DNA of 64,000 nt from Candidatus Thorarchaeota archaeon (GTDB lineage: Archaea; Asgardarchaeota; Thorarchaeia; Thorarchaeales; Thorarchaeaceae): assembly GCA_963726195.1 (NCBI GenBank), contig CAVSBO010000004.1, positions 288,001 through 352,000 of the forward strand. Reading direction: 5' to 3'. Position numbers and translations under genes: made by a program. Position 1 is the stretch's first letter. Every line of letters starts with the position of its first letter. Of the stretch, positions 27,823-34,232 are shown one piece after another. The notes beneath the pieces were generated by a model. It had not been told where the DNA came from and made no database searches. It saw only the letters and a list, made by a program, of their open reading frames with translations.

Positions 27823-29736
27823 GTGCAGCAGTCCAACTTGCGGTTCAAGGTGATGCCTCGGATGACAAAGGATGGATTGTGGCTGGGTTACAAGCTGGAT
27901 CCACAAGGGAACAAGACGGATGAACGTTTTGAGATTAGCACTGACTTGCTGAGGCGTCACGGAGGTATTTTCGGGTCAACAGGCTCTGGAAAGACAGTCC
28001 TGGGCAAGGTCATCCTCGAAGAAGCAGCAATGCAAGGGATTCCTGTGCTGGCGTTCGATCCTCAGGGAGACATCGCATCATTGATGTTGCCCGGCGATCC
28101 GAAAGTTCTTGAATCGAAAGGAGTTCCTGCCTCCCGACTGAAGGAGTACTTGGACAAGGTTATAGTGCGAGTCTATACACCAGCCAGCAGTAAGGGTCTG
28201 TCCGTTTCAATCAATCCTCTGAGTCTGCCTGATGAGAAAGCTGATTCTGACGACATGATTCGACTGCTTGACAACTCGGCGAGAACTCTTGTCAAGGTTC
28301 TTCTGAAAGTCGCTGGTCTCACTTCAACTTGGGAGAGCAAGTCCTTTGCCGCTGTCTACGAACTCATTCGGATCAAGTGGCAGAAAAAGGTGAAAATCAA
28401 AGATCTAAGCGAACTCGCTGATATGCTGGTCGCTGATAAGGAATCTGTCGGCGTTGACCTTGAGCCGTTTATGAAGGTAACCGAGCGGGAGAAACTCGCA
28501 GCAGCTATCCGGAGCTTAACTGTGGGTTCATCTCAGTTGCTGTTCCGAGAGGAGGGGCAACTTGACTTTGACCAGTTGACCAAACCTGTGAATGGGAAAA
28601 CACCAATCAATGTTCTCTTTCTTAAGACGCTCAGGAGTGAAGAAGAGAAGCACTTCTTTATCTCTATCGTACTCAACCAGCTGTATTCTTGGATGTTGAA
28701 GCAGGGCTACACGGACAAGCCAAAGCTGGTTATCTACCAAGATGAAGCGGCACCATTCATTCCGGCTGGCATGAGGGCGCCCGGTCCGAAGGAAATCTAC
28801 CTTCTACTTTTCCGACAGGCAAGAAAATACGGAATTGAGTGTGTGATTTCTACTCAGAGCCCCAAGGATATCGACTACAAGGCCTTCGAGCAGTTCAACA
28901 CTATTGCAACTGGCAGAATCAGCAGCGAGCAGTCACTCAAGGTCCTGGAGAGAATACTCGAGCCTATCGCAGGAGAGAGAGAGTCGGAGTCAATCATGAA
29001 AGCTCTTCCAGGTCAGGAGGTTGGTTCATTCATATTCTCATCTGCGGACATGGCTCCAAAGGTCAACCACATGGTCGTGCGATGGCTGTTGACGAATCAC
29101 GTCACACTCACTGAACAGGACGTACAGAAGTATATGGCCGCAATGGTGAAGGAACAGCAGAAGTTGCTGGAGGAATTGGAGAAGACTCGTGTAGAGGAAG
29201 AGAAGCGAAGGGCTCACGAAGACGAACGAAAGCGGCAAGACGAAGAGAGGGCTAGGCTTCTTGAATTGAAGAAGTCTAAGTTCAAGTCGGTGAAAGAGAC
29301 AGAGAAGGTATTCGCGACTCGGGGGAAGCTAGGGGCAGTCTCATATGACGACATCATGAACGCCTTCATAGCTAGAATTGAGGCTGTCGCCAGAACCACT
29401 TTCGGTCTCCCATTCCTGAAAGAACTCGTCAAGGCACGAAGATTGGAATATGAGCGAGCAATGTCTACATACCTGAAGGAGGCCAAGGCGGCAATCGCCC
29501 AGGGCCTAGCGAAAGAAGTTGCGCTTCCGGGTGAGAAGAGCGGGAAGCCAACTCAGTACCTGAGCTACGAATTCGAGTACGTGCTCCAAGAGGTAATCAA
29601 GAGTACTGGAGTTCTTGAGCCAGAATATGTAGACGGAGGCAGACTCAAGAAGCGCTTCGAGGAGATTGTGGAAAAGGCCACGACAAACCACCTGTTGGAA
29701 CGCGTAATCCTCGGGAAGCCGTTCCTGCAGTTCTAG
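27823..29736 (+). CDS. HerA/FtsK-superfamily ATPase (DUF87/DUF853-like) with charged coiled-coil
   Basis: RHGGIFGSTGSGKT, DPQGD, VYTP.S..G, YQDEA, RQARKYG, STQSP.DIDYK. Confidence 0.88.
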   Translation: MQQSNLRFKVMPRMTKDGLWLGYKLDPQGNKTDERFEISTDLLRRHGGIFGSTGSGKTVLGKVILEEAAMQGIPVLAFDPQGDIASLMLPGDPKVLESKGVPASRLKEYLDKVIVRVYTPASSKGLSVSINPLSLPDEKADSDDMIRLLDNSARTLVKVLLKVAGLTSTWESKSFAAVYELIRIKWQKKVKIKDLSELADMLVADKESVGVDLEPFMKVTEREKLAAAIRSLTVGSSQLLFREEGQLDFDQLTKPVNGKTPINVLFLKTLRSEEEKHFFISIVLNQLYSWMLKQGYTDKPKLVIYQDEAAPFIPAGMRAPGPKEIYLLLFRQARKYGIECVISTQSPKDIDYKAFEQFNTIATGRISSEQSLKVLERILEPIAGERESESIMKALPGQEVGSFIFSSADMAPKVNHMVVRWLLTNHVTLTEQDVQKYMAAMVKEQQKLLEELEKTRVEEEKRRAHEDERKRQDEERARLLELKKSKFKSVKETEKVFATRGKLGAVSYDDIMNAFIARIEAVARTTFGLPFLKELVKARRLEYERAMSTYLKEAKAAIAQGLAKEVALPGEKSGKPTQYLSYEFEYVLQEVIKSTGVLEPEYVDGGRLKKRFEEIVEKATTNHLLERVILGKPFLQF

Positions 29737-31494: not shown

Positions 31495-31845
31495 CTAGTC
31501 CTTGGGGAGCAAGGGTATGGCACAGATGAACTTGAAGACCTCTTTGCCCTTGCGATTGTCAATGCCATGAATCATATTTGGAGGCACGAATACGACATCA
31601 TCTTTCCGGGCCGGTGTATTGCCCGAGGAAGACATGACCTCCGCCTTGCCGCTAACCACGTAGATTTCGTGTTCTTCGGGATGCTGATGCAGCGGCACGA
31701 TCCCGCCTGGTTGTATCTCGAATAGACGCAACGCATACGTTTTGGCACCATTGTTCCGGTCGACGAGCCACCGAAACGTCGCTTTCTCTGTGCCTTGCAC
31801 AGCGACAGGGAGTTCTTCTCGTTTCTTGCTGGTAATTACGTACAA
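31495..31845 (-). CDS. Cupin domain protein
   Basis: PGG.VPLHQH.EEHE.YV.SG, FVPPN..HG. Confidence 0.9.
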   Translation of the reverse strand: MYVITSKKREELPVAVQGTEKATFRWLVDRNNGAKTYALRLFEIQPGGIVPLHQHPEEHEIYVVSGKAEVMSSSGNTPARKDDVVFVPPNMIHGIDNRKGKEVFKFICAIPLLPKD

Positions 31846-32085: not shown

Positions 32086-32604
32086 ATGAGTGAACAGGAC
32101 ACCTACGTGCGAGCCAAGCTTGCGGAGATTAGTACCTCGCTTGAACGTCTCACGAACACGCTGAATCGTACTATTGATGTGATATCGAGAATCGTTGAGA
32201 TTCAAGACACCACGACCCAAATCATGAGCGCCGTCGCAGCAAATGGCAAGAAGCTCGATGATATCATGCAAACCACACGAAAGACCCCGATGGGTGGTGT
32301 GTCGGCGGCGGGCCAAGCAGCTGCGGAACCGCGTTCTGCTGTCTCGCCACTTCAAGTTGTTTTCGATACGCTTGATTCTCAAATAAGAGATGGGGCGATA
32401 GCCAGTGATCTGGCTGTGAAGATAAATGAGGCCGCGGACACTCTTGAGCAGAAGGGTGGCGGTAGTGCTGTTGTCGTCAAAATGCAGCGTTGGAACCGAA
32501 TTCTGAAGACATACGGGCGCGTAGATCCTATTAGCGCCAACGACATCAGAAAACTACGTGATGACCTAAAGGACTGGCAGCGTGAGGTTGCAAAGGCGCA
32601 ATGA
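32086..32604 (+). CDS. Coiled-coil protein with C-terminal Vps28-CTD-like four-helix bundle
   Basis: Heptad N-terminus, flexible linker, C-terminal F.T....IR....A......I.E..DTL...W...L......D.I....IR.L..DL pattern matching the remembered VPS28 CTD. Confidence 0.6.
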   Translation: MSEQDTYVRAKLAEISTSLERLTNTLNRTIDVISRIVEIQDTTTQIMSAVAANGKKLDDIMQTTRKTPMGGVSAAGQAAAEPRSAVSPLQVVFDTLDSQIRDGAIASDLAVKINEAADTLEQKGGGSAVVVKMQRWNRILKTYGRVDPISANDIRKLRDDLKDWQREVAKAQ

Positions 32605-32705: not shown

Positions 32706-34232
32706 ATGGAGAGACTCAGCTTCATACAGCCAGATTCGCTACGAAACCAAATGAATAGAGCCGCCAGTGCTATCAGCAATTCCACAAAGGTCCTCGCCGT
32801 TTCGCACATAGATGCAGACGGAATTACATCGCTGGCAATAGTGGTGACCATGCTTGAACGGCTCGGTAAGAAGGTGTCTTGGAAGAACATCCACCAGCTC
32901 AGCTCGGAAACAATACTTGACGTGAAAGAGCTCGTTGGAGAGTTTCGACCTGACCTCGTTGTATTCAGCGACTTCGGGTCTGGTCAAATGGATCTGGTCC
33001 GTGGGAACATCCAAGGCGAGCCTGGCGTTGACGCCATTGTGGTCTTGGATCATCACATTCCTTCTGACGAGCGCGCGGACTCTTGGATTGAGGGGAATGC
33101 TCAGGGCATAGTGGAAGTGAACCCCTGCCAGCATGGCATGATTGGAAGCTCTGAGTTGTCAGGAGCAGGTCTTGCATTCTTGGTGGCATACTCGATATCA
33201 CCTGAGAATGTCGATCTGAGCGAGCTCGCGGTCGTTGGAGCAACAGGTGACCTACAAGACTACTACGGTCGTGGCTTCTCAGGCCTGAACAAGGAGATAA
33301 TAGCATTAGCACAAGATCACGGCTATGTCAAGGTTCACAAAGACCTGACATTCTTCGGGATAAGCACAAGGCCGCTGCCGTTCTTGTTGGAGTATACGAC
33401 GGATCCCTACCTTCCCGGAATAACTGGAAACAGGGATGGGTGCTTCGCATTCTTCGACGAGTTGGGTATTACCCTGAAGGACGGCCAAGGCGAATGGAGA
33501 ACATGGGCTGACCTCAAGCTGGATGAGAAGAAACGAGTAATTCAGAAGCTGATTGATTCGATTCTTCAAAGCTATGAAAACCCGAGGGCAGCCACTGGCA
33601 TCATCGGTGACGTGATGACACTTGTCAGGCGGCCCCCAAGGACCGAACTTAGAACTGCAAAAGAGTTCTCGACCCTGCTCAACGCGTGCGGGAGAAACAA
33701 GAAACCTGAGGTCGGTGTGAGAATATGCTTCGGTGACCTGGACGCGTGGCGAGAAGGGCAAGTTCTGCTTCAGCAACACAGGGCCAATCTGGCGAGTGCG
33801 CTACGGCGTCTCGAAACAGGAGGGGTTCAAGAGATGCCGGGGATGTATCTGGTCATGGACCCGGAAACGCCTGATACCATTGTGGGTGTCGTAATAGGCA
33901 TGGCTCAGGGATCCAGAATCATACCGACTGACAAACCGGTGATTGGGGTGAGCACGAAGGTATCGGACGAAGGACCTATGCTGAAGATATCTGGTCGTGC
34001 TGTCAGTAGCCTTGTGAAAAGGGGCATCAATCTAAGAGAGGCCTTCGTGTCTGCCAGCAAATCGCTGAACGACAGATATGGGAAGATGATTGCAGAGGGA
34101 GGAGGTCATCCAATGGCTGCAGGTGCGTTCGTGCACACTGACTATCTGGATGAATTCTTGGAAATAGTATCAGACCTAATCTCAAAAACACTGCAGTCAA
34201 CGATTGAAGGAAAAAGTGATGATAGGGGGTAA
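32706..34232 (+). CDS. RecJ/GAN-like DHH phosphoesterase
   Basis: SHIDADG, SDFGSG, LDHH, GA.GDLQ, EFSTLLNACGR, GGGHPMAAGA (DHHA1). Confidence 0.92.
   Translation: MERLSFIQPDSLRNQMNRAASAISNSTKVLAVSHIDADGITSLAIVVTMLERLGKKVSWKNIHQLSSETILDVKELVGEFRPDLVVFSDFGSGQMDLVRGNIQGEPGVDAIVVLDHHIPSDERADSWIEGNAQGIVEVNPCQHGMIGSSELSGAGLAFLVAYSISPENVDLSELAVVGATGDLQDYYGRGFSGLNKEIIALAQDHGYVKVHKDLTFFGISTRPLPFLLEYTTDPYLPGITGNRDGCFAFFDELGITLKDGQGEWRTWADLKLDEKKRVIQKLIDSILQSYENPRAATGIIGDVMTLVRRPPRTELRTAKEFSTLLNACGRNKKPEVGVRICFGDLDAWREGQVLLQQHRANLASALRRLETGGVQEMPGMYLVMDPETPDTIVGVVIGMAQGSRIIPTDKPVIGVSTKVSDEGPMLKISGRAVSSLVKRGINLREAFVSASKSLNDRYGKMIAEGGGHPMAAGAFVHTDYLDEFLEIVSDLISKTLQSTIEGKSDDRG

Follow-up and report, generated by a model that had tools for sequence, protein, structure and literature searches.

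What is a short coiled-coil protein with a four-helix bundle at its C-terminus doing in a Thorarchaeota genome, and is that bundle related to the C-terminal domain (CTD; Vps28-C below) of Vps28? The question is raised by an open reading frame (ORF) of 172 codons in a 64,000-nucleotide stretch of DNA from a Candidatus Thorarchaeota archaeon (assembly GCA_963726195.1, contig CAVSBO010000004.1, positions 288,001 to 352,000), referred to here as the window. A first-pass annotation, made from the sequence alone, had described the product as a stand-alone, ESCRT-I-like adaptor. In the sections below, we discuss the gene, the organization of the protein, and the relationship of its bundle to Vps28, and then turn to its relatives, its genomic neighborhood, and the role that these features suggest.

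The Gene and Its Setting

The ORF is intact, with an ATG start and a Shine-Dalgarno-like motif (GAGGG) placed 8 nt upstream, and it is a real gene under selection (Table 1). It is carried on contig C4 of the assembly, and the ESCRT cluster of the same genome is found on contig C13, which agrees with the earlier placing of the gene outside any ESCRT cluster. No ESCRT genes stand beside it, its neighbors by Pfam being cupin, HAD, and DHH genes. The adjacent RecJ/GAN-like gene noticed in the first pass proved to be a gene with DHH, DHH-CID, and DHHA1 domains (Pfam), co-directional with the target gene and located 101 bp downstream. A hairpin in the 101-bp spacer that follows the target stop codon scores no better than those of shuffled sequences (z -1.4).

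Table 1. Coordinates of the target gene, its parts, and the related or neighboring genes discussed in the text (plain numbers are positions in the window; L numbers denote extracted loci)
Feature	Position	Strand	Basis
Whole gene: coiled coil, linker, and Vps28-C-like bundle	32086..32604	+	ORF list; sequence, 172 codons plus TGA stop
Residues 3-66: single long amphipathic helix of about nine heptads that is predicted to form a coiled coil	32092..32283	+	AF2, register analysis
Residues 67-87: flexible Gly/Ala/Pro/Ser linker	32284..32346	+	Low pLDDT, low conservation, indels
Residues 88-171: four-helix bundle, probable divergent Vps28-CTD homologue	32347..32598	+	CTD-only model, Foldseek, VIA, hhalign
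DHH / DHH-CID / DHHA1 gene (RecJ/GAN/Cdc45-like nuclease family), context	32706..34232	+	Pfam
Cupin gene, divergently transcribed, context	31495..31845	-	Pfam, tblastn synteny
637-aa HerA/DUF87-type ATPase with Lys/Glu-rich coiled-coil C-terminal extension, same conserved block	27823-29736	+	
311-aa paralogue	L069:6625-7560, contig C3 ~843.6-844.6 kb	-	
411-aa conserved helical protein beside the long paralogue	L069:8460-9695, contig C3 ~845.5-846.7 kb	-	
214-aa paralogue	L070:6404-7048, contig C3 ~524.4-525.0 kb	+	
Ras-family small GTPase genes flanking the 214-aa paralogue	L070:5053-6228, L070:7487-8089	-, -	

Molecular Organization of the Protein

The AlphaFold2 (AF2) model of the full protein, which was built with a 30-sequence alignment, consists of one continuous helix at residues 3-66 (pLDDT 77-94), a disordered stretch at about residues 67-87 (pLDDT <50), and four bundle helices at residues 88-102, 106-122, 127-142, and 151-171. 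When the C-terminal 92 residues were modeled alone, with paralogues in the alignment, the same four helices were obtained (pLDDT 85, pTM 0.73). Together with the ORF itself and the register analysis, these models confirm the heptads, the Gly/Ala/Pro linker, and the four C-terminal helices of the first-pass description. The same division can be seen in the conservation of the protein, with the majority-residue fraction being 0.69 in the N-terminal helix, 0.68-0.86 in the C-terminal helices and loop, and lowest (0.41) in the linker, which also varies in length among orthologues.

The N-terminal helix has the periodicity of a coiled coil: over 30 orthologues, heptad positions 8, 15, 22, 29, 36, 43, 50, 57, and 64 are 89% hydrophobic, forming nine unbroken heptads (residues 8-64), and they are accompanied by a second core row that occupies positions 12/19/26/33 in the first half of the helix and 25/32/39/46/53/60 in the second half. 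A core Asn is classic in parallel dimeric coiled coils such as the GCN4-type zippers and, because the near-invariant Asn53 occupies a core position in the second row, the N-terminal helix is probably a parallel coiled coil that forms a dimer. The helix also carries an invariant polar stripe made up of T6, Y7, K11, E14, R21, and N27, and since these residues fall outside the hydrophobic core rows, they are probably surface-exposed, which suggests a partner-binding face.

Relationship of the Bundle to Vps28

Structural searches place Vps28 first. With Foldseek, run against 350,542 PDB chains, the full model and the CTD-only model alike retrieved the Xenopus Vps28 CTD (2j9w) at rank 1; the CTD-only model aligned with 2j9w_A over 86 columns at an rmsd of 1.8 Å (TMq 0.79), and reached TMq 0.80 with the yeast structure 2g3k_A and 0.76 with 2j9v, the other bundles remaining at TM <=0.67. 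Overall, the Vps28 matches had TM values of 0.72-0.80 and rmsd values of 1.7-1.8 Å, at E-values of just 0.07-0.1. VIA-align, which is independent of Foldseek and was run over 48,161 representative chains, ranked the yeast Vps28 CTD 2j9u_A first (Z 12.3, 90/94 residues), followed in the same search by a repeat protein (Z 11.9) and CheA P1 (Z 11.8), and matches that lie <1 Z apart count as a tie by the VIA-align rule. In a second look with the CTD-only model, three Vps28 entries took ranks 1-3 (Z 12.4-12.6, rmsd 2.3-2.8 Å, 89-90 residues), with a redesigned bundle (Z 11.5) and CheA P1 (Z 11.0) coming after them. Lastly, a structure search of the ESM Atlas with an orthologue (P0034) matched residues 79-172 to a eukaryotic VPS28 cluster.

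Searches with standard sequence models return no such match. The target protein has no match to PF03997 even at E 10, and does not reach the gathering cut-off of 24.5 bits; a PF03997 search of the whole genome misses the target gene. No Vps28 match was found among Pfam, NCBIfam, and PDB sequences even at E 10, with either single-sequence or profile HMM queries. The sub-threshold matches that these databases did return (among them Syntaxin, CorA, haemagglutinin HA2, sigma-1, and RuvB) are coiled-coil noise.

Profile-to-profile comparison was made with a reference of 20 genuine Asgard Vps28 proteins taken from PF03997 genome matches (E 1e-13 to 1e-18). When the full-length family was compared with these proteins by hhalign, only the two CTDs were aligned with each other (E 0.006). 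In CTD-only comparisons with the Asgard Vps28 CTD, the 172-aa family gave a probability of 66% (E 5.7e-5; 68% and 4.7e-5 in another run), a paralogue family described below gave 63% (E 7e-5), and the two families merged gave 87% (E 4.3e-6), with each of these alignments covering 81-84 columns and reaching both C-termini. The observed score of 30 lies about 7 sd above the mean of 60 column shuffles (mean 12, sd 2.6, maximum 21-23), reversed alignments score 9-14, and an unrelated helical Thorarchaeota family, that of a 411-aa protein, scores 16 (E 0.27). The identity to Vps28 is 14-20%. D94, L96, W136, L140, and W164 align with conserved D, L, W, L, and W residues of Asgard Vps28, and the alignments to solved and to Asgard Vps28 CTDs, whether made from structures or from profiles, are colinear across the whole domain and end near both C-termini.

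We count this similarity as modest, because the Foldseek E-values are 0.07-0.1, the lead in Z is about 1, and the HH probability stays <90%. On balance, we consider it probable that the bundle is homologous to Vps28-C and highly divergent from it. The Vps28-CTD-like bundle proposed in the first pass has therefore stood up to both kinds of comparison that it called for: 2j9w, 2g3k, and 2j9v head the Foldseek matches of the AlphaFold model of the CTD (TM 0.72-0.80), Vps28 is also the top match in VIA and is present in the ESM Atlas result, and hhalign aligns CTD to CTD (66-87%) far above the shuffled, reversed, and unrelated controls. The matches are thus not to generic four-helix bundles only, by margins that are modest in each case (E 0.07, Z lead about 1, 66-87%).

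Other Readings of the Fold

The steadiness-box domain of Vps28 is the part that builds ESCRT-I and binds Vps23. The Vps28 N-terminal core/steadiness-box hairpin is absent from the target, in which the AF2 helix at residues 3-66 is continuous and hhalign aligns the CTD only. Because this N-terminal domain is missing, the target protein cannot be counted as a eukaryotic-type ESCRT-I subunit, and the term "ESCRT-I-like", which has no Pfam VPS28 match even at E 10 behind it, is not supported. A phosphotransfer bundle of the HPt/CheA-P1 type was considered and rejected, as the CTD contains no histidine, the family has no invariant His column, and the Z-scores of 11.0-11.8 are below those of Vps28.

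Two further readings concern the bundle and the helix, respectively. Small helical bundles often reach Z 10-13 against unrelated proteins, and the designed bundles and CheA P1 do score Z 11-11.9 here, which, together with the non-significant Foldseek E-values and the lack of any HMM-level Vps28 match, would suit a generic up-down four-helix bundle that has converged on the Vps28-C shape within a lineage-specific coiled-coil scaffold having no connection to ESCRT. We regard such convergence as unlikely, given that Vps28-C is the best match in three different structure searches, that the hhalign alignments are colinear over the full CTD (E 6e-5 to 4e-6, with a score about 7 sd higher than those of the shuffles), that the conserved Trp, Asp, and Leu positions coincide whereas the unrelated helical family reaches an E-value of just 0.27, and that a relative from Thorarchaeota, KXH73277.1, has a published HHpred match of 84% (PMC10936438). 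The N-terminal helix, for its part, could be read as a SNARE/syntaxin-like motif with Asn53 as the "zero layer", which would turn the protein into a factor of the membrane-fusion type; it is a helix of about 60 residues with an unbroken heptad core and a conserved polar Asn53 within that core, and the best Pfam match of the protein is Syntaxin (PF00804), at a non-significant E-value of 0.031. However, this match scores 14.5 bits where the cut-off is 26.7, the profile models the Habc region rather than the SNARE motif, Pfam contains no SNARE-domain match, dimeric coiled coils commonly have an Asn in the core, the domain order is reversed relative to syntaxins, and the C-terminus is a soluble bundle with no membrane anchor, so that we give the SNARE reading almost no credence. 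A divergent Vps28-C bundle carried behind a dimeric coiled coil is the reading that we retain.

Distribution and Paralogues

A word-indexed search returned about 120 orthologue clusters (165-185 aa, 45-99% identity), of which those that are named are nearly all from Thorarchaeota, with two bearing other Asgard labels, and an exhaustive phmmer search of 1.84 billion proteins added only a few distant members at 36-40% identity. Among 400 sampled Asgard genomes, the family is present in 79 of the 85 that belong to the window's own taxonomic family and in the single genome (1/1) of the sister family, the remaining 314 yielding one weak partial match. The 172-aa family is thus limited to Thorarchaeota, with almost none elsewhere. 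Two supposed relatives were discarded: P0125, a 1083-aa metagenomic protein with about 13 identical tandem repeats, matched target residues 139-166 with an E-value (2e-14, phmmer) that is summed over the repeats and looks like a repeat artefact, and the match to P0129, a repeat protein whose sequence is unlike the query, looks spurious.

The protein has relatives within Thorarchaeota, where it represents one of three paralogous families. A second and larger family (290 clusters, of which the listed ones span 204-362 aa, with up to 410 aa in the loci examined) combines a long repeat-rich coiled coil with a homologous bundle, which hhalign aligns with the 172-aa bundle at 97.7% (E 1.4e-12). This genome encodes two longer paralogues with the same bundle, of 311 aa and 214 aa. 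The former belongs to a cluster that is conserved across genera and consists of a 411-aa helical protein, a D-aminoacyl-tRNA deacylase, the paralogue, a 271-aa protein, and a TrmB-like coiled-coil protein. The 214-aa form is encoded between two Ras-family GTPase genes, both here and in a congeneric genome (L057), and can be aligned with the 172-aa protein from end to end, N-terminal helix included, except for an insertion of about 35 residues. Compared with the 172-aa protein, the longer paralogues (214-410 aa) have longer repeat-rich coiled coils and different conserved neighborhoods. The 411-aa protein itself gave a near-full-length sub-threshold match to PF03997 (E 0.006-0.017) and was examined as a candidate Vps28, which hhalign rejects (E 0.27, 16 columns).

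ESCRT Genes and Vps28 in Thorarchaeota

The ESCRT cluster on contig C13 encodes Vps22 with a Vps28-type box, Vps25, Vps4, an ESCRT-III protein, and a Zn-ribbon protein. Of the 400 Asgard genomes, 264 match PF03997 above its cut-off; among the 85 genomes of the window's own family, just 7 have a match, all of these matches being weak (E 1e-3 to 1e-5), and full-length Vps28 was not found by PF03997 in these 85 genomes. The complementary distribution of the 172-aa family and canonical Vps28 counts as one event, because it concerns a single lineage. The best PF03997 match of this genome is the N-terminal box of Vps22 (model positions 2-59), and the 81-aa "Vps28-N" ORF of the ESCRT cluster, which might be taken for one part of a split Vps28, is that same N-terminal box.

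In this assembly, Vps22 reads as three ORFs of 81, 92, and 92 aa (L024:6977-9200, C13 ~103.0-105.2 kb), and the aspartyl-tRNA synthetase beside it reads as two, of 329 and 114 aa. Both splits are likely frameshifts due to assembly error and not real, that of Vps22 being read in this way in view of the published Thorarchaeota Vps22, which is a single protein.

These observations fit into the published inventories as follows. Hatano et al. 2022 used a Thorarchaeota ESCRT set that comprises SB, Vps22, Vps25, ESCRT-III, and Vps4, and includes no Vps28 (PMC9192718, Supplementary Data 1). Makarova et al. 2024 placed the N-domain of Vps28 on the Vps22 of Thorarchaeota (PMC10936438, Table S3) and described Vps28-C as occurring both separately and in many multidomain Asgard proteins (PMC10936438); in the Thorarchaeota protein KXH73277.1, labeled "BAR-SB", residues 155-235 match 2J9U_A with an HHpred probability of 84% (PMC10936438, Table S3).

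Conserved Neighborhood and a Possible Nuclease Connection

The target gene lies within a conserved block that can be followed by Pfam and tblastn and that reads HerA-like, B3_4, HAD, and cupin genes on one side of the target and, on the other, the DHH-CID nuclease gene, a small membrane protein gene, and a TPR gene. The HAD-cupin-target-DHH order was found in 20/20 loci of other genera, in three congeners, and in one lineage with 40% identity. In 21 Thorarchaeota loci, a gene for a 113-119-aa membrane protein of the tail-anchored type, with a C-terminal hydrophobic helix and no Pfam family, lies between the target and DHH genes (L071:6604-6963 on the + strand, and the same position in L004-L023). 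The window's genus, with a spacer of just 101-180 bp, lacks this gene at the locus, and a search of this genome with the same protein as query revealed no copy at other positions. In the sister-family genome (G311), the target orthologue is co-directional with a full-length uvrC and lies 45 bp downstream of it (L066:3075-5482), and there is no DHH gene within the 10.5-kb stretch around the orthologue.

This setting raises the question of whether the target might be an accessory or scaffold of replication/repair nucleases that works with the adjacent DHH protein, for example by tethering the nuclease as a dimer. The idea draws on the finding that every examined locus of the family (24/24) has a co-directional DHH gene next to the target, including those in which protein identity falls to 40%, and on the position of the sister-family orthologue downstream of uvrC, another nuclease gene, and it is kept under consideration because both neighbors, DHH and uvrC, are nuclease genes. 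On the other hand, the entire block from the HerA-like gene through B3_4, HAD, cupin, target, and DHH to TPR has been kept, so that the adjacency may be inherited gene order, which we favor over an operon for this reason. A separate membrane protein gene intervenes between target and DHH in the 21 loci mentioned above, the DHH link is lost in the sister family, the paralogues occur in unrelated contexts, and no replication/repair protein is found among the structural matches. A nuclease-scaffolding function therefore appears to us distinctly improbable, and we return to the adaptor reading.

Proposed Role

In eukaryotes, Vps28-C binds the zinc finger (NZF)/GLUE domain of Vps36 as well as Vps20. 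By analogy, we lean slightly toward a soluble adaptor in which a dimeric coiled coil, a linker, and a divergent Vps28-C would dock ESCRT-II/III-type or Znr_PH_CC_SB partners, supplying Vps28-C in trans. In such an adaptor, the coiled-coil stalk would dimerize and thereby present two flexibly tethered Vps28-C bundles, the conserved polar stripe of the first four heptads would bind the partner that is to be connected, and the bundles, as eukaryotic Vps28-C does, may dock onto ESCRT-II/III-type proteins or the Zn-ribbon/PH "Znr_PH_CC_SB" protein. Vps28-C would be supplied in trans by the 172-aa protein and the two longer coiled-coil paralogues, which is proposed because no full-length Vps28 was found and because the Vps28-type steadiness box sits on Vps22. 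We also infer that the target may take part in membrane remodeling. Weighing against the adaptor are the lack of linkage to ESCRT genes, the neighbors being housekeeping genes, the RecJ-like nuclease gene, or, in the sister family, uvrC, as well as the lack of a steadiness box and the CheA-P1 and designed bundles that score just about 1 Z below Vps28.

A more far-reaching scenario, which we put forward as speculation and think unlikely, is that Thorarchaeota have dismantled ESCRT-I, with the steadiness box having moved onto Vps22 and Vps28-C onto three dimeric adaptor families (172, 214, and 280-410 aa), each of which could bring ESCRT-II/III to its own site or cargo independently of ubiquitin and Vps23. 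The shortest form, of 172 aa, might then couple membrane remodeling to chromosome replication or segregation, a coupling that is suggested because the gene is kept beside the Cdc45/RecJ-like gene and, in most genera, beside the gene for the tail-anchored protein. If the bundle does bind ESCRT-II/III, it would show how an Asgard lineage without ubiquitin, UEV-Vps23, and canonical Vps28 feeds its ESCRT machinery, and the proteins, being simple and soluble, would lend themselves to tests of the ancestral Vps28-C interaction.

Comparison with Known Systems

Set against Vps28 (PF03997; 2G3K, 2J9U, 2J9V, 2J9W), the target shares the C-terminal four-helix bundle of about 90 residues, including the helix order and loop lengths, with superposition rmsd values of 1.8-2.8 Å over 86-90 residues and a profile alignment to the Asgard Vps28 CTD that is weak but colinear. 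It differs in having a single long coiled-coil helix where Vps28 has the N-terminal steadiness-box/core domain and, with respect to Asgard Vps28 in particular, in not being encoded beside vps22/vps23-like genes.

Another parallel is with the Asgard Vps28-C proteins of Makarova et al., with which the 172-aa family shares a Vps28-C module located outside canonical Vps28 and behind an elongated helical N-terminal part. The target likewise appears to place Vps28-C in an Asgard protein that is not a canonical Vps28, and the support for this is comparable to the published HHpred value of 84% for KXH73277.1. In most of the proteins of Makarova et al., the partner of Vps28-C is an adaptin-appendage, longin, TPR, or Ig-like domain. 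The 172-aa family consists of shorter proteins and is not named in the available portions of the text and supplementary tables of PMC10936438. Asgard Vps28-C proteins are therefore already known as a kind, to which the 172-aa family is a new addition; it leaves the picture of ESCRT evolution unchanged and adds to the published catalogue of these proteins a well-defined, lineage-wide family.
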